A stretch of 64,000 nucleotides of DNA from Yuukianura sp. NJ FZ-2021 (Eukaryota). The stretch lies in assembly GCA_046563655.1 (NCBI GenBank), contig CM102285.1, positions 1,240,001-1,304,000 of the forward strand, written 5' to 3'. Of the stretch, positions 23,264 to 57,375 are shown in pieces (the first letter of the stretch is position 1; each line of letters begins with the position of its first letter). The position numbers were made by a program, and so were the translations under genes. The notes under the pieces were generated by a model. That model searched no databases, was not told the origin of the DNA, and saw nothing but the letters and a program-made list of their open reading frames with translations.

Positions 23264-23726
23264 ATTTGTTTCATACGATTTTGCTATAAATGTTAAGTAT
23301 AAGTGGTACAATTTTTGCTAATTTCAGGAATTTCCGACGCTGATTAATTGCATTTAAAAGGCATATATGTATGCTAAGGAACTTAATTAATATATACTGT
23401 AGCATAATAAATTTATTGAATAACCTAACCTAAGTTTATATTGAAGAGAGACTTTTTTCTCGAAATTTGAATTATAAACTGTCTTTCGGACTTCAAGTTT
23501 TGGATTCTTGGTTGAAGAAATTTCGCAAATTGGGTCGAGTAGGTTTAAATTGAAGTACAATTTTGTGAGTAGTAAATTTCTATGTTGGCGGTGAATTTTG
23601 AGTTTGAAGTGTGTTTGGGCTGTTTGGCGTTGGTGTGTTTGGTGGCAATTTCAAGAGCCGCTATGGCATATTGTTGGACTGTGCAAATATTTTTTTGCAA
23701 TGTTGCAAATGATTGATTGTTGTAAG

Positions 23727-23947
23727 GGTTTTTGGGACGTGGGTTGTGCTGTCCGAGATGTGGAAAACGGTATCATGCCCAGCAGAAGTCAGCATTTGAC
23801 AAGCACATCATGTACGACTGTGCAAAAATTCCGCCAAAATTTAAATGTGGACTTTGCGATTATGTGGCACGAAGAACGACTTACTTTGAAGCTCATTTCA
23901 AACGGTATCATCCGCAGAACGAAGTTTCGTATTTCAAATACTACTAA
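23727..23947 (+). CDS. Alternative terminal exon, YDC-type CCHC+C2H2
   Basis: CPRC..HIMYDC..CGLC..HFKRYH. Selector cgctatggcatat at ~23659. Confidence 0.85.
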
Positions 23948-24223
23948 TTGGTGGATTTGGAATTTTTATTACGTAGTTTAAGAAAAAATGTAGGTGCTAA
24001 CGATATGTGCAGAACCGTCTAAATCGATGGATTTTGAATTTTTTAGATGATTTTAAAACCGATAGAAAATATTTCATTTTAGCACGTCAATTACGCAAAT
24101 TTTCCGTTTTCCAAAAGCGGCAATTTTTTTTAAAGTACAAAACCATTTCTCAACACGCCATGGTGTATAATAAACCGAAATTTGGAAAATTTCTTAGTGA
24201 AACGTAGGTTTTTTTTTTCTTAG

Positions 24224-24411
24224 GAAAGTTGAAATGTACGCGTTGTGGAAAACGGTACTCGGCTGAGCAGAAGTCAGCTTTTGCGAATCACGTAACTTAC
24301 GATTGTCCGTTCGTTGAGCCAAAGTACAAATGCATCAAGTGCAAATACTTGTCCAGAAGGAAGAAACCGCTCATGCAGCATTTGGCAAAGTTCCATAAGG
24401 ACATTTTTTGA
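24224..24411 (+). CDS. Alternative terminal exon, YDC-type
   Basis: CTRC..HVTYDC..CIKC..HLAKFH. Selector ttctcaacacgccatggtgtata at ~24147. Confidence 0.85.
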
Positions 24412-24591
24412 AAATTTTGAAATTTGTAATTTTTGGAAATTTATATCTATGAGATTTGTTTTGGAACCTGTAGAAGGAGCCATGGCGTATACATGCTTTA
24501 TAGATTAGATTTTGCTTCTTTATGGAAATGTTAGGCTAATCCTGGTTTCTGATTGGTAAGTTAGGTTAATTCTCGTTTTTGATTGGCTTAG

Positions 24592-24785
24592 GCTGCGTAA
24601 CATGTGGCCTATGTGGAAAACGGTATTTGGCAAGAGAGAAGCGGGCAATTCGAAACCATTTTCTGTATGACTGTCGACAAATTGAACCGAAATTTAAGTG
24701 TGAGTTTTGCCCGTATTCGGCTAGGAGAAAGAAAGGACTGATGGTACATCATGCTCGATTTCATTCCAACAGTGTTCCAATATGA
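24592..24785 (+). CDS. Alternative terminal exon, YDC-type
   Basis: CGLC..HFLYDC..CEFC..HHARFH. Selector gccatggcgtata at 24479. Confidence 0.85.
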
Positions 24786-25077
24786 AACGTTTGAATTTGT
24801 GTAGTTTTTATATGGAATTTTGGCTTTAAAGATTACGTTAAATGAATGTGTTTTTAACATTTTAAACTATGCAAAAATAAATTTTACGAAAAGTAATTGC
24901 GATTTTGTCTGATCCTGGAACCAAAGGTGGTGCAATTCTATTTTTGTATTGGTTCTAAATGTGGTTGAATTTTTTAAATTTTTACAATGGTGAAGCCAAG
25001 GGTTTTTGAGGGATTTTTGAAAATTTGATTTTAACATTTGGTGTTCTTTTTTTCTCCATTTTTATTTTCTCGAATAG

Positions 25078-25714: not shown

Positions 25715-26012
25715 TGTTGAGGTAATCTTTGTGTAGGGAATGAGATATTTTAAAAGTTTTGTACCAAATTTGAGATTTCTGAGCTAGAACAATATTGTAC
25801 ACACTCACTTACGACTTTCTTTGTGTTTGTACTGGTTAAGTTGAATAAAAGTTTGGAAAAGATTGTTCTAAAGTTTCCCCGACAGATATTGTTTATGTTG
25901 CAACTTTTCAAGTGAGCCATGGTGTACGAAGTACAAAGTGTATCATTGGGATATTTGATTTCGAGTTTATATTGGTTTTAATTGCCGGTTTTTTTTCCTT
26001 TTTTTTTATTAG

Positions 26013-26218: not shown

Positions 26219-27017
26219 GAAATCGTCTTTTAACTTTTGTACTTACGCCTACAGCCTAGAAGGATATTTGTATATTGCTGGCCGAACATCTTGTTGTAAT
26301 GTTGAAAAACTTGCAATAAATTTTAGACTTTTTAACAACCCGGAGAAAATTTTAACTTTTTCGTCCGGTTGAGTTTAAAGACAAATATTTCTGGTGAGGT
26401 AATCTGTTGAGGCAATTGCTGTTGAGGGAATCCTGTTGTTAAATGTTTGTCCACGTCTTGTACAAAATGGTTGTGTACTTAAACTCTGGGTTATTTTATG
26501 TGAGGCAAAAGAAATTTTTTAAACAATTCGGTTTTTTTTTCGACACTTCATAAAGAAATTTTTTTAAACTTTTTTTGTGGTACTTTTCAGTGTATTTGGG
26601 TGATTTTAAATCGGGTTTTGGAAGTTGTGACGATGGTTTCTGTTATCATGTAACGCACGAGTCAAATGCACGGTTTAGGTTAGGTTGACCGTGTGAAAAA
26701 ACAACTGTTTGAGTGCAAATTTTGTGCGTATAAGTCAACCTGTTACTTTAATCTTCAACAACATCATAAGACGCTACATGAGGGGTTTCCATTTGAGTAA
26801 AATAAGGTAGTTTTTGAAAAAATTTGGTTAGGTTTTCAAAACCTAATGTTATGGTGTTGTTTTTTTCGTTTAGAGTCTTTCTGTGTGCAATTTTTGTTGA
26901 TCTCAACAATAACATTGTTGAGGCGCCATGGCTTGTAAGCTCTGTGAAAAGCTGAAGTTTTTGGTCGAAATAAATTTGGTGTTTAATTCTTTTTTCTGTA
27001 TTTTGAAACATTTGTAG

Positions 27018-27607: not shown

Positions 27608-27741
27608 ATTAAATTGGCGCCAACAAATTTTTAATGTTTTTTATAAGTTCCGTTGATTAAGTTATTGAGGAAGCCATGGCGTATAAATAATAAATTTTGA
27701 AAGTTTTTCGGTTTTTAAAAATTTGGAATTTTGTGTTTCAG

Positions 27742-27977: not shown

Positions 27978-28145
27978 TTTGTAACAATTTTTATGAATTC
28001 GTTCCGAATTTTGCCCTATTTCAGTATTTTTTTAAAACTTGTAAACTGCTGAAGGAAGCCGTGGTGTATAAAATTTTCATAAAAGAAAGTGAAATTTGTA
28101 GTTTCAAGTTTGGAGAACTTGGTTTTCTTTTGTTGTGTGTTTCAG

Positions 28146-28396: not shown

Positions 28397-28689
28397 TTTA
28401 TTTTCTTGTTTTTTCAAAATTTTGATTCCAAATTGTTCCTTTTGGTTTGGATTTTTATATGTTTTAAAATTTCTTAAGGCGCCATGGTTTGAAATTCTTA
28501 ACGTTTGAAAGTAAAGCGGTCGAACTTTTTAGAGTGGAAATTTAACCTGCGTGTAATATATTTCTTTTAAATCAATGCATACATGTGCCATGTGCCATGC
28601 CAACAAATTGGAAAAAGGGCGCCATGGTATATACTAATACTAAGGTGTTGGGAGAATCTAATGTTAATGTAAAGTGTTGGTGTTTTTAG

Positions 28690-29031: not shown

Positions 29032-29070
29032 GCCATGGCATATAAATCAAAGCGGCAAAAAGAATCTCGG
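29032..29070 (+). promoter_or_regulatory. Longest selector seen (pairs with the 5' half of the docking site)
   Basis: gccatggcatataaatcaaagcggcaaaaagaatctcgg vs docking reverse complement gccatggcatataaactcaaaggcaaaagaagttcgg. Confidence 0.85.
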
Positions 29071-29360: not shown

Positions 29361-29769
29361 TTGAGTTAGCCTAATAGAGTTATCTTAACATCTAACATGG
29401 TTCAGGTTATGATTAAAGTTTAATTTTTAGCATGGTGAGCTTAATAAACGATGGCAGTTTTTAAATCGACGTGAAACCACGAAAATGGGCTTTCGGATGT
29501 TGGAATTTCCAATTCCACAACAACATCGTTTTTTTTTTCGCGCTCAGGGCGCATCTTTGCCAGCTTTTTTCTGCTAATAGACATATTGAACAATTGAACA
29601 GAGTTTTGTTAATTTTTGGGATTTTTAAAATTGTGTTTGTGTTTTTGGGAAATAAAGTTATTTGGCTGTTATAGATTTTGTTGTGAAGGGAGAAGTGGAA
29701 GCCATGGCATATGAATTTTCTGTTTAAGAAATTGTAAATTTCGTAATGTTTGTGTCCGTTTGGGTGCAG

Positions 29770-29987: not shown

Positions 29988-30208
29988 GCTGGTCACAAAA
30001 TTTCGAAAGTTTACGGTACCGAGTACCGGTTTTCAGTTCGGTGAATTCAGATTATTAGTATGGTGCTTGTTGGATCTTTCGTTTGTAAGGTGTCATGGCA
30101 TATGTTTTCTTTGGATTGAGAAGCATGCTAAATTTTGTAGTAAGGTAAAAAAAAACGTAGAATTTTAGAGTTTTTTGAATTTGTTTTTCGGATTTTTGAA
30201 ATGTGCAG

Positions 30209-31931: not shown

Positions 31932-32495
31932 GGTCATTTAACTCTTGACATTTGAGGTCATTGGCCTCGATATGACCTTTGGTCCTGTGTTTGGTCCAAC
32001 GCTTCTCACGCCTAATGGTTAGAAACTAACGTATGGTGGATTTGCTTAACGTAATAATATGAGAGATATTCTTAAATTTTCGAGGTCAAAGGTCAGATCA
32101 CGGATTGACCTGAGATCAAATCGTGTTCGTTTGTAAAGGAAATGCGTGAAGAAAGTGGAAATTGGTTTTTTTAACTAAAGAATTTAGTGTATGAGTTTAA
32201 TGCTTTCCTGATGCATTTGTTTTTCTTGTTACATGTTTGAAATATTTTGGGTTTTAGTTTTTAGGCTTTTAAATTCATTTCTAAAATTCATATAAAGTAT
32301 AATATTTGAAGTTTCGTTTAATTATGTTTGAATTTTTTAACTTTTGGAATAAGTATAAAGTTTTAATGGAAAGTAGGGTAGTTTGTTTAATTGCGGTGAA
32401 CCTCACTGTGTGGCGTGGTTTTTTGGTTTAGTTCAATTTTACTTATGTTTTAGTTATTTTATGGTTTTATTTTGTTGCTTTCTTTTCTTTTTTAG

Positions 32496-33508: not shown

Positions 33509-34018
33509 TTTTAAGTGTAGTTTTAAGAAATTGTGCAAAAGTGGTTAGTTTTCTTTTGGAGCACAAAGCACTACTAAAATTGAAAACGAGAATTTCAAAA
33601 AAAACTGTATTTTCAAAAAAAAATTCATTAGAATCTTGATTCTTGTGAGAACACATAATTTGAAGGCACTTAATTTCTAAAATGTGTAAGGTTTTTTCTT
33701 TTTTCTTAAACGTGTATACAATAATTTTGATGAAATAAATTTAAACTCCTTTCAAATTTTTCGTTTTTGATTCAACTTTTACGACGTTAAAATTTTGGAT
33801 TTTGAATTTGTTTTGAATTGGATTTTTTTTCTACTTTGGATTTGATTTATAAATTTCTAACCTTGAATTCAAATTCGTTTTTGATTTTTGCATTAAGGTC
33901 AGTGACCTCCTCAATGTCGCCATTGGTGTTTCAGAGTTAATCTTAATTTTTTGAATTTTGAATCTGGCGGTTGAACTATTTATGTTTATGGTGGTTTTTG
34001 TTTTGTTTTGAAATCAAG

Positions 34019-35469
34019 TTGGATTTCGATGTCGGAATAGAAATTGTGGTCGAGTTTATTCAAATTTGGGAAGTCTCAATCGCCATCTACGGTACTTATC
34101 AAATTTTTAAAACTTTCAAACATTCCGATGTTCGTTTATTTTTTTAAACGATTTATAAGTATTTGGTGGTTGAACAAAGATCTAATTCTTTTTGAATTTT
34201 TTTTTCAAGGTACGAGTGCATTGTTTTACCAAAATTTAAATGTGTCTGTGGGCACATGGCAAAGCATAAGTGGAATATGGAAGTACACAAGAGGAAGTGC
34301 CAAGTATTTCGTAGTACTGTTTCTTCATAACATAATCATTGTGTGTGGGAGGGAAATTTAAAATTTCGAAATTTTTGAACTTCAAAATTTTGAACCGTGC
34401 GATGTGTAACGGATCACTCTTAACTGAAGTTTATTGGATTTGTCAATAGCTTTCTTTCTTCAATCTTTTTTAAACTTTAAGTATAATTGGTGGGTTTAAA
34501 TTATTGTCAATTTTTTAAAGTAATTTTTGATTGAAAAACATGCTTGTTGCTGTTGATTTGAATAGTAAATGACGTTTGGAATCTTTTCGAAAGTCGGCAT
34601 GGCTCAAAAACTCTTTTTAATGTCTAGTTTTTAAATTTGTGATTTTTGGATCATACTGTAGATTTAGACAGACGGTATCCTTGCTCTAATAAGGACTGTA
34701 AACGGGCGTATAAAACTAAAATCTCATTGGACCGCCATTTACGGTAGAGAAACAGAAACTTTTTTGTTCGTTTTTGAAATTTGTAGTACAAATTTTGTAC
34801 AAGGTTTTTGGAATTTTGTTTCAAATTTTTGTTCAAGGTACGAGTGCATTGTTGTACCGAAATTTAAATGTGTCTGCGGTCACATGTCAAAACATAAATG
34901 GAACATGGAAGTACATAAGAGGACGTGCCAAGTATTTCGTAGCACTACTTCGTCGAAGCCTAATCGTTGTGAGAGAAGGGGCAAAATTTCGAAATTTTGA
35001 AACTTCGAAATTTTGAACCTTACGCTGTTATGTTGTATAAAAACGGTTTGTTGTTGTTGGTTTGATTAAAAATCACGTTTTGAATCTTCCGGAAAGTCGT
35101 CATGGCTCAAAAACTCTATTTTTCAAAATTTGGTTAGGTTTTTTAGATTTGTGATTTTTGGATCATACTGTATACATTTAGATCGACGGTATCCTTGCCC
35201 TAATAAGGACTGCAAGCGGGCGTATAAGACAAAAGACTCATTGTATCGCCATTTACGGTAAAGAAACAGAATCTTGTTAGTTCTTAGAAGGTTTTTGAAA
35301 TTTTGACGAGGTTTTTGGAATTTTGTTTCAAATTTTTAGTAATGAGTGCAACAGAAGCCCACGATTTGGTTGTCCTTGTGGATTAAGAACAAAATACAGA
35401 TGGTATTTAACTGCTCACCAAAAGAAGTGCAAGGAGTACGAAAATTTTCTTGGCGGGAATTTTAAGTAG
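34019..35469 (+). CDS. Three split cassettes: 34019-34330, 34662-35000, 35182-35469
   Basis: Each is C-x4-C..HLR|(Y/N)EC..CxC..HxxxC with a phase-2 intron. Selectors at 33902, ~34579 and ~35081. Confidence 0.8.
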
Positions 35470-35710: not shown

Positions 35711-37668
35711 GATGTAGAAGGAAACGGTTTCAGTGTCGTACTGTCGGATGTGGCAAAATGTATTCTAATAAGGAATCGTTAACTCGTCACATTCGGTAAG
35801 AAGCACCTTTTTACAAAAAAAAATGTTTTTCTTTTTGTATTTTGAAATTGATTTTCTGAAATGTAGATATGAATGTAACAAGGAGCCGAGGTTTTGTTGC
35901 ATTTGTGGATTCAAGTCCAAATACAAATGGAACTTGACTATGCATCTGAGACGGTGCCAACAGCAAAGAGCGAGAGGGGATCAGATTAATTAGTTCTTTG
36001 GCAACGAAGAAAATGAAATTTTGAAAAGTTGAAGGAAAGAGTTGTTTTTGAAATTGTAAATTGTGACTTGTGAAAATTTGTGAAGGATTCTGCTTAGAAG
36101 TGTGTTGAACCTTGTCTTGAGTTCGCCCAACCTAACCTTAGTAAAACACATTTCTAAAACCATATGAAAAATGTTTTAAAGCATAAACAAAATCTAAGTT
36201 TTCCAATTTTTTTTCCAAACACTAATTTTTTCATGATGAATTAGGGAAACGGTTTCAGTGTCCGACTCCTGGATGTGGAAAAATGTATATGCAGAAGAAG
36301 AATTTGTATCGTCACATTCAGTAACATACTTAAAAGCTGAAACCTTACGTTTTTTTTTCTTTTTCGAATTTCGAAATTTGTTTTTTTTATGTAGAGACGA
36401 ATGCAACAAGGAACCGCGCTTTTGTTGCATTTGTGGAGTTAAGGCCAAACATAAATGGAACTTGATTGCTCATCAGAAACGGTGCAAAAAATACGGAGGT
36501 TTTCTCTGCCAGGAGTGAAACGACACGAGATTTTCACTGTTTTTCGTTTTTTTTTAACGAAAATTATTTTGACTGAATTTTTGAAGTTTGGGAAAGTTTT
36601 GTGAGTTATGTGAATTTCAGTTTTGAAGTTTGTAGAAGATTCTGCTTAAGATTGTGTTGAACCTTCTCATGTGTGTTTGACGTCGTAATAAACCAGTTTC
36701 CTAAACCGACTAAAGTTTTTTTTATGAAGGACACATTAATTTTTGTGGATGTTTCGAAATTTTAAATTTTTCGAAATTTTTTGATGATGGTGAAGCACAT
36801 GTAGGAAAGCCGTATCGGTGTCCCACTCCTGGATGTGGAAAAACGTATGCGAGGAAGGACACGTTACATCGCCATGTTCAGTAAAATTTTAACAAAAGCA
36901 AAAGCAAATTAAGGTTATTGTTTTTTCCCTGTTTTTTTTTGAATTTGTCTTTTATGAAATGTAGACATGAATGTAACAAGAAGCCGCGCTACAAGTGCGT
37001 TTGTGGACTTAAGGCAAAGCACAAATGGAATTTGACCTCGCATCAAAAGATTTGCAGGATCTATGAAACTCATCTTGTGGCGAAGTGGAAATAGATAGAA
37101 TTGATTTGGCATCTATTAGTGTGGCGTCTATTGTTCATTTTCTAAAAGCTTTTTTGAAAATGTTTTTTTTTGGTCAAAAACGTGGTCTTGTTTTTTGATT
37201 TCTACTGGCAACTGTGTGCTAGGGAATGTTTTCGCTTTTTCCATTCCGAAAGTTTTTTGAAGTGCGTTGAACCTTTCTCTTATGTCGCCATAGAATTTTG
37301 TCTGGAATTCAAAATTTTGAAACTTGTCGAATCTCAAAATTTTGAACTAGTTTTTAAAGCTGTTTGAATTTTGGCATTGGCAGGGCGGTTTAAGTGTCCA
37401 ACTGTTGGCTGTATGAAGGCGTACAAGAGGAAGGACACGTTAGGTCGGCATTTGCGGTAACAAAAAATAGTTTTAAAAAAGTTGCTTTTTATACAATTGT
37501 TACCTTTTTTTAAATAATTTTTGAAATTGTAGATTCGAATGTAACGTAAGTCCAAAATATGGTTGCATCTGTGAGTACAAGGCAAAACATCAATGGGTGT
37601 TGAATAGTCACCAGAAGGCGTGTCAAGTATTCTTGAAATATGGCGGACAGTTGTCGAAATTGGTGTAG
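35711..37668 (+). CDS. Four split cassettes: 35711-35993, 36245-36518, 36805-37094, 37384-37668
   Basis: C(P/R)T(P/V)GC..RH..|xECN..C(I/V)C..H..C. Selectors g(t/c)gttgaacctt at ~35577, ~36102, ~36654 and ~37264. Confidence 0.8.
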
Positions 37669-37889
37669 CCGGTTTTGCTATTTTTAATTTTCTTAAGTTA
37701 CATAGGAAATTCTGATAATTTAAGCAAGATTTTAAAATGAAAGAATTTCATTTTTCTTTAAAACTCGAATTTGTTAAATTAGAAACGTGGCGAACCTTCT
37801 CTAGTTGCCGTTTCGAAAATTCATTGATTAAATGGTACTTTTTTTTAATTCTTTGAAAACTTGTTTGAATTTTGAATACTTTTGTTTAG

Positions 37890-40501: not shown

Positions 40502-40815
40502 CATCGGTGTTTAAGTGTCAAACGTCTGGTAGTGGGAAGTTGTCCATGAAGAAAGTCTCCTTAACTCGACACTTACGATAAAAGCGAAATTCGTAAATTG
40601 AGAGACTAAAAGCAATTTAGCTAAAACGTTGTTTCACTTTTTTGGAAATGATTTCTTTCCTTTTTTGAAAATTTAAATTTAAACACGAGTGTAACAACCC
40701 TCGAAAGTTTGGTTGCGTAGTTTGTGGGTACAAGGCAAAGTGGATTTGGCACCTTACTGAGCATCATAAGACATGCAGGACACATAAAGCTTCTTTGTAG
40801 CAAAAGGGGGTGTAG
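40502..40815 (+). pseudogene. Decayed member of the NKPRKF family
   Basis: Cys to Ser (TSGSGK); donor GGTAAA changed to GATAAA; second-exon acceptor AG lost; in-frame TAG. Confidence 0.8.
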
Positions 40816-41068
40816 CCGATTTGGCTGTGGGCAGTTTTGCTGTTGTAAATTTGTTTTGTGTATAAAGTGAATCATAACAAATGTTTAAATTTTCAAAGAA
40901 ATGTCTCGTTTTTGGAAATCATTAGCATTTTTTAGTATTTAAATCGTGGTGAATCTTCTCTATTGTGGCTGTTAAACGAGCTTGAATTAAATTAAAACGG
41001 GTATTTAAAGTATAATTTGTAATATATTTTATAATATGATAAATACTTTTGTTGTAACTCTTTATCAG

Positions 41069-41606: not shown

Positions 41607-42894
41607 TACTACGGTTTTGGTGCGTGAACAGAAATTGTTGGAGGAGTTATGCCAGTAAAGGAAATTTGATGAGACACTTACGGTAATTTTTGATTTAGTT
41701 GACCTCTGAGGTCATTTATAAAGTAGAGGTCAATGACCTTGAAATTTTGTTTTAGATATGAATGTAATCAGGAGCCGAGATTTCAATGTCCATGTGGATA
41801 TAAAGCGAAACAAAAAGTGAACTTGGAGGCACACTATGTACATTGTTCAGTTGCAACTGCCGCAACAACTAGGAACCTGAGACCTTAGACCTCTCAAGAT
41901 CGTCGGGGCAAAGTTTTTCAATTTCTAAACTAGTTTTTTTTTAATTTCTCCTAAAATAAATTAAGGTTTCCTTTACAAACGGATTCACGGCGGTTTTGCT
42001 TGTCCAAATTCAGGATGTGAACGAATTTACAATTACAAGTGTAAGGGATCAGTGAATCGGCATTTTCGGTATTTGAAAAATGTTTTTTGAATTTTTGGTT
42101 AAGAAATTTTGAAACTTGGAGTTTTTTCAATTTCGAAGTTTCTGGTAACTTGTTAGGTATGAGTGTAACAGGGCTCCAGTATTCCAGTGCGTCTGTGCAT
42201 ATCGGACAAAACGAAAGGATTCCTTGAAATTCCACCAAAAAAGATGTGCGGACTACCAGAGTTTTGTTGGTGATAAAAATCAATAAAATATATAAATAAA
42301 TAAGTAAACTTTAAATAAAAACAAATATAAAAAGTTAGGTTTCTCCACGACTTTTCTTTCTCTTTTTCTTTGTTTTTCGAAGATTTTTTGATTTAAAAAA
42401 TTGTGGTTTAATCTCTTGGTCGCCTGGTTTTGTTGTTTGAATTTAATTTACTGTAAATTTAAAATTTATCAGGACATTTTTATGAAATTTCATTTTTTTT
42501 TTAAATAGCAGTAATTTTGTTTTATTTTGAAGAAAGTCTAATTGGAGTAGGAAAAAAGGGTAAAGTGGGATACTTGTGTCCAAATGCTGGATGTCACTGT
42601 GTTTACAAAAACAAGACGCATTGGATTCGGCATGTCAGGTAATCCAAATTTTGATTTTGAAAAAAAAAATATTTTTTTGAAAACTTGTTAATAAGTTCCA
42701 AAATTTTTAAAGACTTGTCAAATCCATGTTTTAGACACCAATGCAAGGTGGCGCCACAATTCATTTGTTTATGTGGCCACATATCTAAAATGAAGAAGCA
42801 GTTTTTCGCCCATCAACTCAAATGCGCAGCTTACCATGCTGAAAGCCAGTCTTGGGGACCTAACGAACCTAAATTTAACATATTTACTGACTAA
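41607..42894 (+). CDS. Three split cassettes: 41607-41888, 41966-42286, 42533-42894
   Basis: CVNRNC / CPNSGC / CPNAGC first halves with YEC/HQC second halves. Selectors at 41488-41512, ~41888 (gacctctcaagatcg) and ~42403. Confidence 0.8.
41727..41739. promoter_or_regulatory. Perfect IR1 nuclear-receptor palindrome (EcRE-like) AGGTCAaTGACCT
   Basis: Sequence match only. An everted pair TGACCTctgAGGTCA lies next to it at 41700-41714. Confidence 0.35.
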
Positions 42895-43103
42895 ATCTAG
42901 CGAAAACCTAATCTAGCCTAAAATTAGGTTAACCTATTTCATCTTTAATAACTAAATAAGGTTTTTAGTTTTCAATATTAGTGTTCTAGTTTTTCGGAAA
43001 AATCAACGTGGTGTTCTCTCATCAGTGTCGCTAGTTTTGTTTTTTTTTGAAATTCTAAAGTTATTTGTGAGATTCGATTTTCAAAATTTTGAATTTTTGA
43101 AAG

Positions 43104-46100
43104 GAATCAGTGCACTGAAAAACCGTTCATTTGTGTACGCTTGTCCGAATGAAGGGTGTGCTCGGGTGTATGGGCTTAGAACCAATCTAAATCGACACGT
43201 TCGGTAAATGAAAATTCAATTCTTCAATTGTAATTTTTGAATTTCGAGTTTGAATTTTGAAGAATGATTTTGAAATTGGACTTTTAGTTTTGAGTGCAAC
43301 ATTGCACGGCAGTTTCCTTGTTTGTGTGGAGCCAAATTCAAAAGGAAAGACACTTTACTTACGCATCAGACCAAATGTGTTGCGATGGAACAAGCTTTGG
43401 GCAGAATTTAATAACTAAATTTAAATAATTAATCTAAATTTATAATGAATAACTTACTGAAGTTTCTAGTTTTCACGGTCGTTAAATGTTTTCTTTTTGG
43501 TTTTGAAGGAATTAAATTTGTAAGCGTGGTTTGCTCTCGAAGTCGCTGGGCTCAAAATATTTTTTAAATTGCAACTTTGAAAAAAAATTGACTTGAATTT
43601 TGAAAGGGATTGGATTATGGAAAAACTGTTCATTTGGTTTTACCTGTCCTAATACTGGGTGTGGTCGTGCATACATCGTCAAAAGAAGTTTAACTAGACA
43701 TGTTAGGTAAAAAAAAATAATCGAATTCGATGTTCCAACATTTTGATTTGAGTTTCTGAAGTTGTTGGATTCCCAATTTTCAGATTCGAGTGCAACAAAT
43801 CAGCACAGTTTGGTTGTAAATGTGGTGCGAAATTTAAAAGGAATGACACTTTACTGGCTCATCAGGTCAAATGTCGAACGAGTCTTGCAGAATTAAGAAA
43901 TTTGAAAACCTAAGTACTTAATCCAACTTTTTAAGCAGGTTTTCTAGGTTTCACTGTTTTTCAGTTTGCAGTTTTTTCCCGATTTCTAATTTTGTTTTCT
44001 AATTAAATACGTGGTTTAACTCTCGGAGTCGCTTGGTTCTAAATTATTTTTGAATTTATCAAAGTCAAAATTTTTTTGAATTTAATTTTGAAAGGAATTG
44101 GAGCATTGGAAAACTGTTCGTTTGTTTTTACTTGCCCTCATACTGGGTGTGGTCGTTGGTTCAATTCCCAAAGCAGTCTAAGTCGTCATGTGAGGTAAAA
44201 AACACGATTTTAGGAGCTTTTGAATGTTTTCTTTTTGGAAATCAGTTTTTTAAGTCCGTGGATTTGGAATTTTTCAGATTGGAGTGCAAAAGAGATATAC
44301 AGTATCCTTGTGTGTGTGGAATGAAAACGAAAAGAAAATTCAATTTGTGGCGGCATCAGGCTAAGTGTAGAGTGTTCAACGAGCAGAAATTGAAGAAAGT
44401 TTAACTTGAGTTGCTTTCGAAATTTTCATAAAAGAGCGGGAAAAATTTCTCATTTAATATACAATTCCTATGGAGTTGACAATTTAAATTCATTCAAATA
44501 AAGATCAGGTTTACAATTACTTGTGAAACTGCATTTTGCCAAAGTCGCTTTTGGGCGGAAAAAAGGTTTTGGAATTAAGTGTTTTCAATGTTATCTTTTC
44601 CGTTTTCTAATTGAATCTAACGTGGTTTGCCTTTGGAGTCGCTGGGTTCTAAATTATTTTGAAATTATCAAAGTTACAATTTTTTGGATTTAATTTTGAA
44701 AGGAATTGGATTATCGTTTGGTTTTACTTGTCCTAATACTTGGTGTGGTCGCGTGTTCAACGCCCAAAGCAGTCTAAGTCGGCACATGAGGTAAAAAAAA
44801 ATCGAATCCAAGATTTTTGACTTTTTTTTTTTTTGGAGAATCAGTTTTTTAGGTTGTTGGATTTGGAATTTTTCAGATTGGAGTGCAAGAGAGAAGTACC
44901 GTTTACTTGTGTTTGTGGGAAGAAAACGAAACAAAGATACAGTTTGCGTCGGCATCAGGTCAAGTGTGCACTGTACAACGAGCAGAAATTTAAGATATTT
45001 TAACGCGGTTTGTTTTCAAAATTTCTGGAAATGCAAAAATTTCTACCTTAAAATACAATTTCTATGGAATTGACAATTTAAATTAATTAAAATAGAGATA
45101 AGGTTTACAGTCATTTCTAAAATTGCATTTGATAGGCCTCTCAAAGTCGCTTTTTGGCTCCACCTTATAGGGTTCTAAATGATTTTGAATTTATCAAAGT
45201 TGCAATTTTTTGGATTTAATTGTGCAAGGAATTGGATTATGGAAAGAGTGTTCGACTGGTTTTACTTGTCCTAATGCTGGGTGTGGTCGTATGTACAGCG
45301 TCCAAAGAAGTCTAAGTCGTCATGTGAGGTAATAAAATCGAGTTCGATTTTTGGAGATTTTGAATTTTTTGGGGGAATCAGTTTTTAAGTCAATTAATCA
45401 GTTGTTGTTGGATTTGGAATTTTTTAGATTCGAGTGCAACAGAGCTGCACAGTTTGCTTGTGTGTGTGGAACGAAAATTAAAAGAAAAGACAATTTGTTG
45501 CAGCATCAGGCCAAATGTCGTGTGTACAATGAGCAGAAATGTTGAGAAGTTTCAATGTGTTTTTTTTTTGTTTTGTTTTGTTTTTTTTTTTGTTTTGTTT
45601 TTTTTTTTGTTTTGTTTTTTTTGAAAATTTTCCGAAGAGTGGGAAAAAATTCTAATTTAAAATAGAATTTCTGTGTATTTAACGATTTAAATTAATTAAA
45701 ATAAAAATCAGCTTTACAGTTATTTCTGAAGGTTCATCTTCCAAGCCTCTCAACGTCGCTTTAGGGCAGAAACAAAATTTTGGAATTCGAGTAACTAGAG
45801 TTTGCCGCTAGGCAATTCGTCGAATTTCGACCAATTGACTTTCGGTGAATTGTATGTCGACGTAATCAAGTACTTTGTTTGGGTTGCTTAGGAGGGTTAA
45901 AAAGGCGGGCATGTGATCGATTTCTTTGCCCGAATCCTGGCTGTACAGGAGTATACTCCAATCCTGGTAACTTGAACAGGCACCTTCGGTAGGTTATACA
46001 CTTTTTTTTTTTAAAGTTTGAGTTTTTTCGAAATTTGAAATTTTAGATTTTTGGTTTGATTCTCCCCAATTTGTAGGTACGAGTGTAATATACCACCGCA

Positions 46101-46200: not shown

Positions 46201-46440
46201 ATCTTTTTGAATTTTTTTCTTTAAATTTCTAAAAAAAAACGTGTTTCAAAAAACTTTGCTCAAAGTCATGTTGCTGTCCTAGTTGAAAATTTTTTAGGAC
46301 GTGTTTTTTTTTTAAATAAAGACTTGTCATTTGTGAGTCCGCGAGGATTTGAAAAGTTGAAACCGTTTTTTACCTCTCAATGTCGCCGTGGTTAATTTTT
46401 GTATGAAAGAATTTTTTGAAAGTTTGAAACTGACCAATAG

Positions 46441-47000: not shown

Positions 47001-47373
47001 CCTAACTAACCTAATGTACTTCTCCTTAACCTAACCAACCTAATGTACTTCCTAATTTACTAACCTAATCGAATACCCCTGTTTCTAAAACTTAAGTTGT
47101 GTATTTGACGAATTGTGTACAAATGGCAATGTTGATACTAATGTCAGTTACAGTAGGCAATGTACAGAATCGAAAGTATTAAGGAGAAAGCATGTTAACA
47201 ATTAAAAAAAAACGAAGTTTCGATCTTTCGATCTTGGTGGGGTTTTTTGTCTGTGAATTTTTTTCCTGGAATTTTGCTTTAGTTTAATTTTCGAATGTGG
47301 TAAACCTCTCTTGGACTCCATACGTTCGTAACTAATAAAAATTTTAAGCGTGTCATAATTTTTGTGGGGTTAG

Positions 47374-48518: not shown

Positions 48519-49002
48519 TCGCTTACTAGGTTAGTAACGTAACTCTAACCTAGTTGGAATTTGTAAAAAAAATGTTTTTTTTGGAAAACTACTTGGGATT
48601 TTTGTTTTAGAATATTGGGAGCAAAATTTGTCTCCAATTTTATCAAATTTATCTCTATAATGCTACCTTGCCGCATAGAAAGTAATGTTACACAAAGCTG
48701 AACTTTTTTTGGAGGGAATTTTGAATGGTGAAAAAAATCGCATTTGGCAGAATTGGTATAAACTCAACTTGAAATTTTTAAATTTCACAAAATTTTGTTT
48801 CAGTAGTGCAACATTGTACTAAAAATATATTATAATACTATATATTTACTGTATTTATAAGTGTACATTGGTATTGTTTGGGATTAAAGTTGCAAAATCT
48901 GCAAATCTTCAAAATCTCTCAAGGTCGTTGGCTCGCAGTGAATGACATGAAGGTCAAGGTTGTTTTTTAAGTGATTGACGTAAGATTTCTACTTTTGAAT
49001 AG

Positions 49003-49307: not shown

Positions 49308-49512
49308 ACTAATATTTTTGTATTTCTATTACAGAAAACTCTGTAACTTATGAAATGGGCAAAATACAAAACCAATGGCAATTGCACAAATGGGGGTTAG
49401 AAAATTTCATTATTCTGAGGTCCTATTGTCATTGCAAAATCCACCCATTTGCCATTTCATTTTGTCTGTCTACTGGTAACTTCCGTGTTAGAGTGAGGGA
49501 GGGGTTTTGTCT

Positions 49513-49635
49513 TTGAATTGCCATTTGTTTTGTATTCTGAATTGCCATTTGTTTTGTATTCTGAATTGCCATTTGTTTTGTATTCTGAATTGCCATTTGT
49601 TTTGTATTCTGAATTGCCATTTGTTTTGTATTCTG
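49513..49635. repeat. Minisatellite, 24-nt unit x5
   Basis: (tgaattgccatttgttttgtattc)5. Confidence 0.95.
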
Positions 49636-49844
49636 ATGTGCCCATTTCATAAATTACACAGTCTTCTGTATTTACATCAAAGATTTCTAAAATTTTCAAA
49701 AAATGTTCTTAAAATTCAAATTCATGTCGTTATGAGAACTATTGTTTTACTCTCAATGATTCGCCATGGTATTTTACGTCAGAAAAATCTTACTTGATTT
49801 TTTTTGTTCGGTATTTTGTGTTTCTTGATCCGTATTGCTCATAG

Positions 49845-50128: not shown

Positions 50129-50300
50129 ATGTTCTGGAAAACTTCAAATTCTCTCTTCTCTTTTTCAACTTCCTATTCAATACTTCAACTCTTACACTAA
50201 AAGTTTAGTTTAGTTTAGTTTGATTATGTGGTGAACCTCTGAAAGTCCTGTTAGTAGAAATATATGAAATTTTGAAAATTAGCGCCATTTTGTCATACAG

Positions 50301-53300
50301 GAAAACGTTTTCGTTGTTCAATTCCAAACTGTACGAAGTTATATTCCTCTAGAGGAGCTTTGGTACGACATATGCGGTACGTTTTCTAAAAAAAAAATTC
50401 TAAAGAGAGTCTATGGATACAAACATAATTTTGTTTTTGTTTTTTGAAAAAAAAAGGTTTGATTTAAGAGTTACACAAAATTTTGAAAACTTTTGTGCTT
50501 ATTAGTTACGAATGCAACAAGGATCCACGGTTCAACTGTAACCTTTGCGGACATAAGACCAAACGGATGTCGGATTTGCGACGACATACGCAGATTTGTA
50601 AAGGTTATCCGTCTCGTCAATCCCTGGCGTTCAGACGATAAGTTAGTTTAAGTCAAGGTCAATGATAGGGTCAAGGTCATCTGGTTAAGGTCAAAGTAGT
50701 TTTAGTAAGGTCAAGGTCAAAAGTTCTGTTGGCTGGGTGATTATTAGCTTAAAGTGATCGTTTTGTTTTGAATTTTGAAAGTTGGAGTTATAAATAATAA
50801 ATATCGCTTTATTCATTCCATCTTAAACCTCTGTTTTTTTTAACTAAATTGTTAAAATTTTAATGTTTTTGAACTAACATGAGCAGGACCCGGAAACGTT
50901 CCTTGATTTTTTTAAATGTTCACTTCTGTGTTTTTCATTGTTGTTTAAACCATTTTATGGACTTTTACTGTATTTGTGGTGAACCTCTTAAAAAAACTTG
51001 GCGGAAATTCAAAGTTTAAAAAAATTTGGCCGGCCATTTTTGTCTTTAGGAAAACGATTTCGTTGTCCCAATCCCGATTGTCGTCGGAGTTATTCACGTA
51101 AGGGAAGTTTGGCTCGTCATTTGCGGTACGTTTTCAAAAAAAAAAAAGTATTGAAAACTTCATACATGATTTCTAAAATTTCTCTTTAGTTTGAAAAGTA
51201 ACTTTTTGAAATTCTTTGTGCTTACGCTTATTAGTCATGAATGCAACAAAGATCCACAGTTGAAGTGCAATCTTTGCGGACATATAACCCTGCGGAAGGC
51301 GGATTTGCAACGACATGCGCAGACTTGCAAAGGTGTTCCGTCACGCCAATCTCTTGCGAGACGACGACGGCTTGGACTAGATTAAGTTAAGGGCATGTTG
51401 AATACCTTTGGTCAGGTCAAGGTCAGTTTCGTAAGGTTGTTTAGATGAGGTAGTGTTTGTTAAGGAGTTCATTTGGATTAGTGTACAGTAATTTTTTTGT
51501 GTTCTTCGACGCCACCAATTTAAGACTATTTTATAATTGGAACAATTTTGCAACATTTCGTATGAAAAGCGTTGGTTTTTTAAATTGTAGAACTGTTTTG
51601 CGAACCACTCAAGGTTGCTTAGCTTTTTGTTTTGAAATGTTAACGATTTTGTAAAATCTGAACAGGAAAAAAAATGGAGAGATTGTACATATGCGTCTGT
51701 GGTCGTTTCTATGCAGTCAAAGCAAGTTTGACAAGACATATGAGGTGTGTTGAGTTAACAACAAAAACAATCCTCTTTTTTCGGTTTTTGAATTTTTTGA
51801 AAGAATAATAAAATCTGTGAAACCTTTTTTCAGATTCGAGTGTAACAAAGAACCGCAATTTCAGTGTCGTCGAGGTCACAAGTTTGCACACAAAAGCAGT
51901 TTGCGTAGACATTTACACATGTCACCCGAATGTATTTGAATTTGAACAAAGTCAAGTTTCGTAAAAGCTTCAAATTTTAAAATTTTTCGAAACATTAAAT
52001 TGGAAAGATTTTTAGCTTTGTTCTTTTCTCTGAAAGATTTACAAGTTTTGACGTGGTGAATTTCTCAGTCGTGGCAGAAGCAATTTTTTTTCTTTTATGT
52101 TTTTGAAATTTTGAAATTTAGGGAAATACTTTCCGTGTCCCAACCTCCTTTGTCCAAAAGTCTACACTCACAGAAGCAGTCTTTGGCGTCACGTCAAGTA
52201 AATACATATTTGCCCATACTAAATTTTTGTCTGCGACCTTACAGTAAACTAAACTTTGTTTTGTTTAGATTCGAATGTGGAAAACCTCCACAATTCCGTT
52301 GCCGCCTGGGTCACGTTTTCACTCGCAAGTCAAATTTGATGAAACACTTACAAACTTCGTTTGACTGCAATTAATGCAATTCCCAATCCCAATGCCGGGA
52401 TTTTTCAAGTTTTTCAAAACAAAATTTTTTTTCAAAATTCGGATTTAGTGTTTACCCAATGAGCAACTTTTGTCGTATTGTAACAATTCATCTGCCACCT
52501 TCAAGAATATAGTTGTAAATTAGAATATTTTTTTGTGTGTTTCATTTTTTTTGAACAAGGAGTAAAGTTGTTTTATTGTGTTGAATAATATTTCAATGGT
52601 GAACCACTCAAACTCGCCCAACTCATAGACAAAAAATTTGGTTTCTAAACCAAAGACTATAAAGACTATTTTTGGTTTTAAAACGTTTTGAATTTTTAAT
52701 TTTAGAAAAACGACCAAGGCATAAATGTCCGAAATGCCCAAGTTCTTATGCTACCAGAAAGTCCTGGAGACGTCATGTGAAGTACGCGATGTAAACTAAC
52801 CCAAAAAATTTACCGTAAAACTTCTACCAAGTCCCCGAGCTATATGTAAAGTCTCAGCCTTTAACATTCATAAGTGGCCAGCGTCTATGTCTGTTTCGAA
52901 ACTCGGGATTTGTTAAAAACTGGGAATTATTAGAAGTTTTACGGTATACTTTTTATTTGTTGCTGTTTAGTTTTTCGTAATATTTTTTGATTTGTAGACT
53001 CGAGTGTGGTCGGGAGGGAACATTTCAATGTGAATATTGTGATTTGAAATTCAAACGAAAGTACAGACTTCAGCGGCATCAAAGGCAGAAACATTGTACG
53101 CTTCATGCACCAGTTCATGTTGTTGTTCCAGAAAAGAAAGCAGTTTAAAGTTGTTTCAAAAGAACCTCGAAAAGACAACGAATTTGAAAAAAATTTCGTA
53201 ACCGAAACATAATTTCAATTCTACTATTTTGTACTTGAGGTTCTGTTTTCAGTCTTTTTCTGAAATTATAGTTTTATGTTTTGGATTTCTGTTTAATGTG

Positions 53301-53733
53301 GTAAACCTTTTGAACTGTGTCATACGTCAACTGGAAATGTGTTGACTATTTTGCTGTTGATGTGATTGACGTTCATGTAATGTATTGATGCTGCTAAGTT
53401 TCAATAAATGTTGACGTTCTGTATTATAGTTGTAGTCCGTCGGAAGGTTTTCACTTGTCCTACTCCGAACTGCAATCGTAAATACACCAACGAACAGAAA
53501 CTGATTCGACATTTTAGGTAAACATGATTTCTCAAAATTTCAAACAAATTTCAAAATTTCAGAATTCAAATCTACGGAGCCTTTTGAAATTGTGTAGATA
53601 CGTTTGCGGCAAGCCGAAAATATTCAGTTGTGAATGTGGCTACAAAGCCTTCCAAATGTCAGATTTGAAGAAACACCAACAACGAGTCAATAGTTGCCGT
53701 GCATTTTCAATGCCTTCTCGTTGGAAGAAATGA
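50301..53733 (+). CDS. Six split cassettes: 50301-50641, 51050-51385, 51666-51939, 52122-52374, 52706-53148, 53430-53733
   Basis: lola-like C..C..RHx(R/K)|xEC(N/G)KxP.F.C..H. Selectors gtggtgaacctct at 50228 and 50976; others at ~51600, 52051, ~52597 and ~53298. Confidence 0.82.
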
Positions 53734-54003
53734 ACAAGATTGCTAATTGAGTTGCTTCTTGAAAAAATTAACAGGACTCAAATTTCTGTTTTCAAAATAA
53801 ATTTTTCTGAAGTTTTTTTTTCGTTTTGTAACTCGCGATGATCAGTTTTTTGATGATTGGAGAAAAATTTGGAAAAGTTGAATTGACCTTTGAAGTGTAA
53901 TTAAAAAAGTAAACTGTTTGTGGTGACCTCTCATGCTTTTTTGAAAAGTTTTTCTACCTCTAATGAGTTTTGGAACTATGTTGAGCTATGTAATTTTGCA
54001 TAG

Positions 54004-54368
54004 GGACTGTGAGGCCTGTGCGCATGCGCAGTAGCTATGCAGAATCTCCAGAGTACTTGCCTACTGTTTTAGATGGAAGATTCTTTACTCCTTTGCCGTC
54101 AGTTCCATTTGTAGGAAATCTCACCGATAGACCAGCAATCAAACGCAGAGCAATCTGTCTCTCCTGTGGAAAGATGATCTGTGGGGTCATGACCTCCAAT
54201 TTTATTACTCATTTGAAGGTAAGGGCACCACACTTAATTAACTCAACTCGTTTAAGAACTGATTATGTTGATGAAGTAACTGTTGAACTTTTTTAGCGAG
54301 TGCACCAGGCAGCTTACATCGAATACAAGGCTCACGCTCAGGCACAAAGAAGGTCTCTTCCAGTTTAA
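54004..54368 (+). CDS. Split cassette, BED-finger-like (54004-54218 + 54297-54368)
   Basis: RFF..AICLSCGKMI..TSNFITHLK|RVH with a phase-0 intron. Selector gtggtgacctctca at ~53920. Confidence 0.8.
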
Positions 54369-55044
54369 ATATTGTACTGAAATGTTCCTAAAGGTCAAAG
54401 GTCAACTAAGATTCCACTTTGGTTATGCTGCGGCGCAATAAGATAGTTTCATTTAGAATTTTTCATAGTTGCAACCGACGGCTTACTAATTTGAATTACG
54501 TAAACAGCAAACACGTAGGCAAACAACAACAAATACTAAAATCGGCATGTTTACTTAAGAACAAAAAGTATTCAAAGCTACATATCTCGACGTTATGGAA
54601 AACCGTGTGCAAGTAGTGTTTATGTATTTGGTGTGTACGTAATTGTAGAACTTGGTGGATCATGTTTGTGGATAATAAAAAATTGGTTTTTGGGGAAAAA
54701 AACTATAAAATTCAAATTACGTGGATCCGATTCGAAATCGAATGTTAGTTTTTGCAACAACTTGCGATCTTTTAAATTTTCAACCGTTTCAAATTTGAAG
54801 TTTCACAACATATTTTGTCAAAAATTGGAATTTTTGAAAAAGTTTTATCAACTAGCTAAGAAATTCAGTATGGATGATGGAGATAGTCTCAAATTATTTT
54901 GGAATCTTGCCTACTACATTTGTTCTTACCGTTTTCCTTTTCCATTGTGACTTTCTACCGATACCAAGCAGCACAGCCAGTAAATTGTTAATATTTGTAG
55001 TGATAATTAATACATTATGCTATTATAAATCTTTCTAACCATAG

Positions 55045-55325
55045 GATCAAAGCATCTGGAGTTTGTCAAAAGTTCTTGGGGCGGGAACTTGTTGATTTGG
55101 AAAGGCTTTATGTTTTCGAGAATTAAAGCGATTGGCGGTAGTCAGTACTGGAGATGCACTCGCTACAGAGATCGCCACTGCACTGCCAAGTGCATCACAC
55201 GTTTTGGCAAATTTAAGTCTGAATCTGGAGGGCACAATCATGAAGTAGAGCCAGAAGAAATTGAAAAGCGACGGAAGTTGAGTTTTTGGAGAGACAGTGT
55301 CCGAAATGAGGAAATTTTACCATAA
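55045..55325 (+). CDS. Alternative terminal exon, FLYWCH (mod(mdg4)-type)
   Basis: FVKSSWGGNLLIWKGFMF..YWRC..CTAKCIT..HNH. Confidence 0.85.
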
Positions 55326-55740
55326 ACTGACTTGAAAGCATGCTGTATGCTGTTTCTTTATCAATTTAACTACATGTAATTACACTAAATTTTAAGGGCA
55401 GTTTTATGAAGTGTAAGAATAGTTCATATGCAGTAATAGCATTTTTTGTATCTCAGTTTAACAAATTTTGGGATTAACAAATTTTGTGGACATGTGTGAG
55501 AAATTTCTCTTAAAATAAAATTTGGTAGCGTTGAAATTTTTGAGATCGTTTTTCTCTTCAATTTTTTTTCTGAAAGACTTTCTTATGGTGGAGTTTTTTT
55601 CTGAAACTGCGGTAGGAATGTTTGGTTTATGAGAAATGGCGCTGATTTAAAAAGTTTTTTGATTTGGTAATCTCTCAAGGTGTGAAATTTTGTTAGTTTT
55701 TCTACTTAAAATGTTTCCATATGTTTTGTTTTTGATTAAG

Positions 55741-57375
55741 AACTGAATTTGCGATACAATTGCACAACTTGTTGGCGAAGCTACTTGCACCACACAAGCC
55801 TCAATCGTCATCGAAAGTAAATCAAAACATGTTTCAATTTTAAGAAGTAATTCAAAAAATTTCAAATTCTGGAAATTTCAAAAATTGCCGTTTCGTTCTA
55901 GATATGAATGTGGAAAGGAGCCGAAATTTAGTTGTGAGCATTGTGGTAAAAGATTTCACCAGAAAAGTAACCTAGCACAGCATCTCGTCAACTGCAATAC
56001 CAAGAAAGCTAAACACCGAATAAACCAACACTAAAGAAGTTCAAATTTTTCATTTTGTTTGTAAAAAGTTTCAAAATGTTTTCTTTTTGAATTTTTTTTA
56101 AACATAGGTCTTTGAGTTTATCAATTTTGCTGAGAGCTGCTAATTTCTTTCACTCTTTTTTCGTTTTTGAATAAAATATGTTCAATACTGTGAAGTTGCC
56201 GGTGGTAACTAGGCTGAATTGAAAAAAAAAATCACTTCAGTTTTTAAAATTTTCGTTGTTCAAAAACCTGAAAAAAATTTTCCATTTTGAAATTGAACGT
56301 GGAGAATCTCTCGAGGTTGCATTGGAAAGAAATTGTTTTTCTCAACAGTTTTTTTTAGAAATTCATTTGTTTAATTTAGTGGATTACGACGACGGCCGTC
56401 ATAAATGTCCAAATTGTTGGAGAACTTATAAGCACAGGAAACATCTCCAGCGTCACGTAAAGTATAGCATCCATATTAAATTCAAAAAAAAAAATTAAAT
56501 TTCTTAAAAATTTAGGGATTTTTGACTTTTGTATAATAGATATGATTGTGGAAAAGAACCTCAATTCATGTGCGTAGAATGTCATCATAGATTTCGTCGA
56601 AACGACCAACTCGAAAAACATCTTCTTAAAATGCACGGTTACATATTGTAAACCGACTTTACGTCCACTTTTTTAAGTGAAAATATTTTGAAAAAAAAAT
56701 TTGCTCCAAAAATGTTCCGGAGCTTTCTGAACCGGTTATACAAAATGTTAATTTGAAGCGGTGAACCTTTGAATAAAATTCGAAACAGTTTTCTGTTTAA
56801 GTGTTTTTCTTTTGTAAAAGTTTTACATTCCGGAAATTTCTTAGGTAATTTCATATCTAAATTTCCCCCATGTATCAAGAAGTTTTTAAAATTTCGAAAG
56901 TGGAGCCACATTTTCATGTTTTTTTTGTGGATTACGTTGGCTCAAAGCTGTTGATGTATTTCAAATCATAAATTCACTTTAAGTTTCAAAAATTTTTCGA
57001 AAAGTATTTCATTTTGAATTGGAACGTGAAGAATCTCTCAAGGTTACAATGGAAAGAAACTATTTTGCTGTGGAGTGTTTCTTTAAAATTTATTTAATTT
57101 AGTGGATTACGACGGTCGTTATAAATGTCCAAAGTGTTGGCGAAGTTATCAGCACAAGAGAAACCTTCATCGTCACTTAAAGTATAACATCCATATCAAA
57201 TTCAAAAAATTTCTTCTTTGAAATTTCTTTAAAATTTGTGAAATGTTGACTTTTGTATTATAGGGATGAATGTGGAAAGGAACCTCAATTTGTGTGTATC
57301 GAATGTCATCATAGATTTCGTCAAAACAACCAACTCAGAAAACATATTATAAAAATGCACGGTTACTTGTTGTGA
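55741..57375 (+). CDS. Three lola-like split cassettes: 55741-56034, 56380-56651, 57103-57375
   Basis: CxxCWRxYxH..L.RH.K|x(E/D)CGKEP.F.C..C..H. Selectors at ~55666, 56296-56320 and ~57023. A gutted cassette remnant lies at ~56758-56950. Confidence 0.85.

Follow-up and report, generated by a model that had tools for sequence, protein, structure and literature searches.

A docking-selector-like arrangement among the alternative 3' cassettes of a lola-like BTB zinc-finger gene

In exon 6 of Dscam1, a single docking site follows the constant exon and is matched by dozens of complementary selectors, one for each alternative exon. Docking site and selector sequences were reportedly described by Graveley in 2005. 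Here, we analyse a stretch of 64,000 nucleotides from Yuukianura sp. NJ FZ-2021 (assembly GCA_046563655.1, contig CM102285.1, positions 1,240,001 to 1,304,000 of the forward strand). This stretch is called the window, and all coordinates refer to it unless a related locus is named. The window carries a lola-like BTB zinc-finger gene with its variable 3' part, and the locus looks like a docking-selector system. The alternative exons of Dscam1 lie inside the transcript and exclude one another, while the cassettes here are terminal and bring their own ends, so that their mutual exclusion needs no pairing. The docking site, moreover, is present in two copies.

Docking-selector control of 3' variable regions has been validated for Drosophila PGRP-LC, CG42235 and Pip, and the accessible text of the report proposes that pairing activates the proximal 3' splice site by approximation (PMC6191721). 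There, as in the window, the docking site lies close to the shared 5' splice site, and the selectors precede tandem alternative 3' cassettes. The three genes are described in this text with 3 to 10 cassettes (PMC6191721), compared to about 45-55 selectors here, in a BTB zinc-finger gene. Further differences are that the selector families of the window use different halves of the docking site, that the docking site is kept across species despite a diverged linker exon, and that the present system is known from sequence alone.

A BTB constant region that is joined to one of many alternative 3' exons is found in lola and mod(mdg4), as given in the accessible parts of two reports (PMC4387717, PMC13490949). 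The locus shares this architecture and, like mod(mdg4), has one cassette on the opposite strand. For Drosophila mod(mdg4), the accessible parts of these reports state that there is no meaningful complementarity between donor and acceptor (PMC4387717, PMC13490949), and those of the former ascribe trans-splicing of lola to a U1-binding motif that resembles the one in mod(mdg4) (PMC4387717). In contrast, complementarity dominates in the window, and the consensus U1-site motif, searched in its exact form only, has 0 matches there. The term lola-like rests on the BTB domain and the cassette architecture and does not imply established orthology to Drosophila lola. In chelicerate sDscam, intronic complementarity is proposed, in the accessible part of the source, to join separate RNAs of a clustered locus (PMC9258826). 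This is a related idea, but gene family and arrangement are different, and action in trans is only a candidate here. No description of docking-selector pairing in a lola-like gene was found in the literature searched, a search outside of which lie supplements and most subscription papers. At this locus, complementarity stands out more than any other feature and is kept across species, and the architecture is notable in its own right.

The docking element is 44-47 nucleotides (nt) long and starts 26 nt past the 5' splice site that closes the last constant exon. The element occurs in both copies of the constant part, modules A and B, which each terminate in the 5' splice site GTAAG followed by the same 72-nt intron start. 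The last 47 nt of this shared intron start are taken as the docking core, and its reverse complement is the reference for all tallies. The docking stretch is identical in 72 of 72 nt between modules A and B, and full-length copies in direct sense are present only at 7008-7079 and 19810-19881. The constant elements, docking sites and cassette array are as follows.

6887-7007, plus strand: last constant exon of module A, ending at the 5' splice site GTAAG at 7008, with an RNA contig joint from 6796 to 6887
7033-7079, plus strand: docking site copy A, 47-nt core, in a stretch of 72 nt identical to copy B
17964-19808, plus strand: constant module B with BTB and linker exons, paralogue of 5157-7007
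19835-19881, plus strand: docking site copy B, starting 26 nt past the 5' splice site at 19809
21335-59530, plus strand: array of alternative 3' zinc-finger cassettes downstream of docking site B, open reading frames (ORFs) with C2HC/C2H2 patterns

Behind the docking site, the introns of the two modules have diverged, and only a few islands remain alike, among them the first selector. Further short islands are kept at 7107-7120 / 19924-19937, which carries a GATC...GATC inverted repeat, and at 7156-7170 / 19978-19992; neither was found in the related loci L001, L002 and L006. The docking core is identical over 35-38 nt in these three loci, where the protein identity of the linker exon is 38-51%. 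L006 contains one short selector-like match. In the related locus L004, the docking site has diverged (six changes, 1906-1958) and four weak selector-like matches lie downstream. One of the L004 changes, A to G, would make A-U pairs into G-U pairs with the ancestral-type selectors kept there. A search of Rfam gives no family at the gathering score, and a literature search with the docking 11-mers retrieves unrelated papers only. A perfect palindrome, GCCATGGC, lies within the docking site (7043-7050 and 19845-19852), so that two docking sites, or two proximal selectors, could pair together.

Selectors were searched ungapped with the docking reverse complement, blind to the type of mismatch (match +1, any mismatch -1.5), at several thresholds. 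Counts for the direct sense exclude the self matches of the two docking sites. We observe 45 complementary-sense matches versus 5 direct-sense matches at threshold 10, 36 versus 2 at threshold 11 and 26 versus 1 at threshold 12. Transition-lenient scoring gives 52 versus 4, and gapped alignment 51 versus 2. Over the search variants the complementary sense ranges from 36 to 53 and the direct sense from 1 to 5, which is chance level. A 15-mer pattern search returns 11 matches, with 0.91 expected. About 45-55 selectors of the same strand are complementary to the docking site, and each of them precedes an alternative zinc-finger cassette by a distance of tens to a few hundred nt. These selectors span 7476 to 60657, and five of them sit behind docking site A. 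The matches are listed here, together with one match upstream of module A and its inverted duplicate; "example" marks those quoted in the preliminary description of the window.

2886-2900, plus strand: selector-like match upstream of module A
7476-7494, plus strand: first selector after docking site A, conserved island
9873-9886, plus strand: selector
10482-10495, plus strand: selector
11029-11044, plus strand: selector
12542-12558, plus strand: selector
15137-15151, minus strand: selector-sense match, inverted duplicate of 2886-2900, about 1 kb upstream of the minus-strand zinc-finger ORF 14107-13925
20353-20371, plus strand: first selector after docking site B, conserved island
21804-21813, plus strand: selector, weak
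22905-22924, plus strand: selector
23659-23671, plus strand: selector of the proximal family, which pairs with the docking 5' half
24156-24170, plus strand: selector, proximal family
24479-24491, plus strand: selector, proximal family
25916-25930, plus strand: selector, proximal family, three mismatches
26924-26942, plus strand: selector, proximal family
27673-27687, plus strand: selector, proximal family, example
28058-28072, plus strand: selector, proximal family, example, three wobble changes
28615-28633, plus strand: selector, proximal family, example
29032-29046, plus strand: selector, proximal family, perfect 15-mer
29701-29715, plus strand: selector, proximal family
30094-30103, plus strand: selector, weak
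32384-32404, plus strand: selector
33902-33923, plus strand: selector
34590-34613, plus strand: selector
35093-35116, plus strand: selector, duplicate of 34590
37784-40420, plus strand: tandem array of six cassettes, period about 520 nt, selector starts at 37787, 38320, 38830, 39349, 39886 and 40408
41889-41910, plus strand: selector
45137-45150, plus strand: selector
45746-45759, plus strand: selector
46372-46391, plus strand: selector
47294-47321, plus strand: selector
48913-48927, plus strand: selector
50228-50247, plus strand: selector of the distal family, which pairs with the docking 3' half
50976-50991, plus strand: selector, distal family
51602-51618, plus strand: selector
52045-52067, plus strand: selector, example
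52597-52618, plus strand: selector
53292-53308, plus strand: selector
55669-55681, plus strand: selector
56293-56320, plus strand: selector, example
57023-57052, plus strand: selector
57495-57510, plus strand: selector
57958-57973, plus strand: selector, duplicate of 57495
58529-58541, plus strand: selector
59750-59764, plus strand: selector, outside the interval 23650-57050 of the preliminary description
60641-60657, plus strand: selector, outside the same interval

The placement of the selectors is linked to the cassettes. Within 300 nt upstream of the first CxxC, a selector is found for 22 of 38 zinc-finger ORFs, compared to a mean of 9.7 and a maximum of 18 for random placement in 2000 trials. 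Each unit of the six-copy array contains, in this order, the selector, a predicted 3' splice site about 95-110 nt further on, a short exon, a short intron and the terminal exon. The selectors have no one common motif, and the property they share is complementarity to one continuous element. Selectors of the proximal cluster (23.6-30.1 kb) match docking core 29-44, near the docking 5' end, and those of the distal cassettes match core 4-31, near the 3' end. A pair without any overlap is given by 29032 (core 30-44) and 50976 (core 10-25). Coverage of the docking site peaks at central positions, on which 28-31 of 45 selectors fall, while the proximal (core 29-44) and distal (core 10-25) families are disjoint. 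The further down the gene a selector lies, the further along the docking site is its match (Spearman 0.65, p=6.6e-6, n=39), a correlation that is inflated by neighbouring duplicates.

The first selector (7476-7503 / 20353-20380; 11504-11519 in L001) lies 440-515 nt behind each docking site in a conserved island. Its G>T mismatch is also present in the related species, and no finger ORF follows close behind. This selector might build a default hairpin and so mask the docking site.

The assignment to a BTB zinc-finger gene is based on Pfam BTB (PF00651) matches on two adjoining exon ORFs, 18349-18711 (E=3.3e-12) and 18712-19509 (E=3.1e-8), and on the fingers encoded downstream. The constant part is present in two tandem copies, module A at 5157-7079 and module B at 17964-19881, with an identity of 86.6-88.5% (docking site included). 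Between modules A and B lie selectors (7476-12558) and finger ORFs (7841-8589) that belong to module A. Between 3.9 and 59.5 kb, 40 plus-strand ORFs fit a C2H2-like finger pattern, many of them as a pair of C2HC and C2H2. This pattern missed the units of the six-copy array, so that the cassette count is an underestimate. Pfam zf-C2H2 exceeds the cut-off in one of five cassettes tested and stays below it in the other four. The best relatives in a protein search with the linker exon carry no gene name, the named matches cover the BTB part only and are labelled bric-a-brac-like, and a search with one cassette against longer proteins gives no match. RNA data consist of short contigs from two metatranscriptome runs with small shares of the constant region. 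They confirm the module A intron between 6796 and 6887 (GT..AG). A second contig joint, from 5831 to 18710 (GT..AG), seemingly runs from coding exon 1 of module A to coding exon 2 of module B. This joint is ambiguous because its 27-nt side differs from module B at one base, and it may simply represent module B's own intron.

Judged by the sequence, the reading of docking site and selectors as partners in an RNA duplex is well supported by orientation, by tiling along one element, by placement and by the conservation of the docking site. The preliminary description had reached the same preference for an RNA duplex over a DNA promoter or transcription-factor motif from an asymmetry of selector mismatches towards G-U pairs. 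We retain its conclusion but not its proof: the excess of G-U compatible changes is weak and mostly an effect of base composition, and is thus unfit to demonstrate that the repeats act as RNA. We consider it probable that the window holds a lola-like docking-selector locus in which selector mismatches mostly are what mutation predicts. By analogy to validated docking-selector systems, one selector at a time would pair with the docking site in the pre-mRNA, and this pairing would loop out the intervening cassettes and bring the chosen 3' splice site beside the constant 5' splice site. The strength of pairing, G-U and A-C positions included, may tune cassette usage. Selectors would have spread by tandem cassette duplication and then diverged with a transition bias on the T-rich, C-poor sense strand; in the accessible part of one report, tandem duplication is proposed as the origin of selectors (PMC6071210). 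More tentatively, and with considerable doubt on our side, the conserved docking site could guide the choice among about 50 cassettes by pairing, the opposite-strand cassette included, with the two docking halves serving the proximal and the distal group.

The five examples given in the preliminary description are all present in the sequence at the reported places. Of the 11 changes in them, 10 belong to the types A>G and C>T (56296: T>A, C>T, A>G, C>T; 28058: A>G, C>T, A>G; 27673: A>G; 28620: C>T; 52051: C>T, C>T). In the following, W denotes the wobble-compatible changes A>G and C>T, N the non-wobble changes G>A and T>C, and tv transversions. The type-blind ungapped search yields W/N/tv counts of 48/30/50 at threshold 9, 36/20/36 at threshold 10, 30/18/34 at threshold 11 and 24/9/25 at threshold 12. 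Symmetric transition-lenient scoring yields 73/38/66, with W:N from 64:33 to 91:46 in five variants, and gapped alignment yields 37/18/42, 29/11/29, 90/42/79 and 63/35/63. For the interval of the preliminary description only, W:N is 29:17 and 63:32. The W share of transitions is 64-68% (36:20; 73:38 to 90:42 under permissive symmetric rules). In this exhaustive count, the transitions are not symmetric, with a raw W:N of about 1.8-2.1 to 1, so that the described bias exists in the raw numbers. The quoted examples are, however, not representative, as W changes make up 39-41% of all mismatches compared to 10 of 11 in the examples (Fisher p=0.002).

How much of this excess exceeds expectation depends on the composition of the sense strand, which between 20 and 60 kb has 35.8% T, 30.0% A, 19.7% G and 14.5% C. 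On such a T-rich, C-poor strand, changes to T and G are expected to be commoner than changes to C and A, and mutation leads to about 57% wobble-compatible transitions without selection. A first null, composition weighted by the aligned bases, gives an expected W share of 0.58. A second, from same-diagonal positions just outside the matches, gives W:N of 178:130, 132:108 and 88:76, a share of 0.54-0.58. The third is a local substitution spectrum (936 columns, 301 events) taken from all columns that are paralogous within tandem cassette families; selectors were masked, and the direction of change was set by majority. Its per-site rates are 0.146 for A>G, 0.234 for C>T, 0.195 for G>A and 0.123 for T>C, with an expected W share of 0.566-0.572. 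The three nulls agree on about 57% (0.54-0.585), that is about 1.3-1.4 to 1. A spectrum from the six-copy array only was dropped as too small (77 non-coding events, C>T 2 of 9, implied W share about 0.3-0.4). Between 20 and 62 kb, there are no inverted repeats usable to separate strand-specific rates.

Tested against 0.5, the W excess has binomial p values from 0.056 to 0.00002. Corrected for composition they run from 0.004 to 0.34, and the excess beyond composition is small and of borderline significance. In the ungapped type-blind sets, corrected p is 0.23 at threshold 10, 0.34 at threshold 11 and 0.056 at threshold 12; it is 0.063 in the lenient set and 0.12, 0.042, 0.010 and 0.11 in the gapped sets. 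With the third, empirical null, p is 0.18, 0.036 and 0.004; when selector families and null are bootstrapped jointly, P(excess<=0) is 0.18, 0.07 and 0.02. The residual odds ratio of the W excess is 1.3-1.55. None of these p values is corrected for the number of analyses, of which there are many.

Separated by type, A>G:G>A is 10:13, 29:24 and 34:28 (p 0.62, 0.11 and 0.10 against an expected share of 0.445-0.459), which is no clear excess. C>T:T>C is 26:7, 44:14 and 56:14, and the asymmetry is carried by C>T alone. Of the 11 C positions, 9 show C>T changes, which are thus not confined to the two CpGs, and G>A is concentrated at core position 26. Isolated internal mismatches with at least 4 matches on each side and at least 10 in all comprise 9 W, 11 N and 11 tv. 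Six of these 11 N are one T>C common to the six-copy array, and with shared changes counted once the ratio is about 8:6. N transitions, too, are enriched over transversions relative to the flanks (odds ratio 2.5-2.8, p=0.0007-0.004). Pairing cannot explain an enrichment of N, which suggests that duplicated selectors diverged in the ordinary way, with a bias towards transitions. In predicted duplexes, the sense strand has an advantage of 2.64 kcal/mol over antisense (Wilcoxon p=0.0005), compared to 1.91 kcal/mol for random intronic segments, from which real selectors were not purged (Mann-Whitney p=0.08 versus selectors). In L001, which has the same docking core, there are 15-18 complementary matches versus 1-2 direct ones. 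W:N is 8:9 in the strict and 19:17 in the lenient tally, against an expected share of 0.56-0.57, in a small sample compatible with a modest excess. Window and L001 pooled give 44:29 (p=0.39) and 92:55 (p=0.14).

Several observations weigh against the reading of a docking-selector locus with mismatches shaped mostly by mutation. With families that bind different docking halves, both types of selector could in principle bind at once, and strict one-at-a-time competition is not guaranteed. The docking site is invariant where selectors are numerous, so that no compensatory covariation is visible. The two strongest of the four weak matches in L004 fit the window-type docking site better than L004's own. 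Among the short metatranscriptome contigs, no joint leads from 7007 or 19808 to any cassette, and joints are present in the constant modules only; use of the cassettes and of the pairing is therefore inferred only. The W share exceeds expectation in every alignment-based tally of the window (0.62-0.73 versus about 0.57), with isolated single mismatches as the sole exception in the window. Some real G-U tolerance may exist, given p=0.004 in the most permissive gapped set and the bootstrap P of 0.02. In a stronger form of this argument, selectors are under selection as RNA to keep their mismatches compatible with G-U pairs, and the excess of A>G and C>T truly marks a sense-strand duplex. Besides the W share, this is favoured by the gapped C>T:T>C of 56:14 (expected share 0.66, p=0.008), by the spread of C>T beyond CpG, and by 56293 and 26924, whose duplexes are far more stable in sense (-47.0 versus -32.6 and -38.3 versus -25.2 kcal/mol). 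The opposite order is found for several selectors, for instance 52597 with -33.2 in sense versus -43.4 in antisense. In addition, corrected p is 0.12-0.34 at thresholds 10 and 11 (four type-blind sets) and 0.04-0.06 at threshold 12, there is no clear surplus of A>G over G>A, and neither the isolated mismatches nor L001 show the bias. Selection of this kind is conceivable, but we would not expect it; the residual W excess is small at most, is restricted to C>T and may be caused by tolerance of G-U pairs.

The alternatives to a cis-acting pairing system concern what the repeats are and where they act. That they are DNA-level sites, promoter or transcription-factor motifs of separately transcribed cassettes with the docking site as one more such site, could draw on the alternative 3' exons of Drosophila mod(mdg4), which have their own promoters according to the accessible part of the source (PMC13490949), and on the single orientation of all selectors, which tandem duplication alone would likewise give. 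It is very improbable in view of sequence-unrelated selector families that are each complementary to adjoining parts of one element, of full-length elements that number only two, in opposite sense and 26 nt past a 5' splice site, and of direct-sense copies at chance level. Hardly more credible is that selectors are passive, functionless remnants of tandem duplication. Neighbouring selectors do form duplicate families, and both kinds of transition are enriched as in plain divergence, but duplication does not explain why selectors are complementary to one unique element next to the 5' splice site, why the docking site is identical across species, or why selector and docking islands survive in diverged introns. 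Pairing mainly in trans, in which separate cassette RNAs would find the constant-exon RNA by the selector-docking duplex as in trans-splicing of the lola/mod(mdg4) type, is unlikely, though clearly less so than these two. It would accommodate the zinc-finger cassette on the minus strand (13925-14107), which forms an inverted duplicate together with the selector-sense element 15137-15151, and the service of one cassette array by two identical docking sites; RNA pairing promotes sDscam trans-splicing in a mite, as far as the accessible parts of two sources report (PMC9258826, PMC13490949). On the other hand, all other cassettes are collinear on the plus strand, the Drosophila-type U1-site motif is missing from the window as described above, and the minus-strand unit could be a dead duplicate, for which retention of the 15-mer at 89.8% block identity is not unlikely.

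The inverted duplication itself comprises 2297-4816 and 13172-15749 with 89.8% identity and places the finger cassette and the selector-sense element on the minus strand. An RNA contig from one metatranscriptome run (X1) covers 14108-14293 within it. The minus-strand cassette is possibly a trans-spliced cassette or a dead copy.

Duplication is also visible on the level of whole cassettes, with tandem families of a period of about 460-600 nt at 37377-40969, 43083-45762 and 56273-58301. The youngest cassette pair, at 57364-58292, is 96-97% identical. A 24-nt tandem repeat with 5.6 copies and 98% match lies at 49504-49636, in an intron between cassettes.

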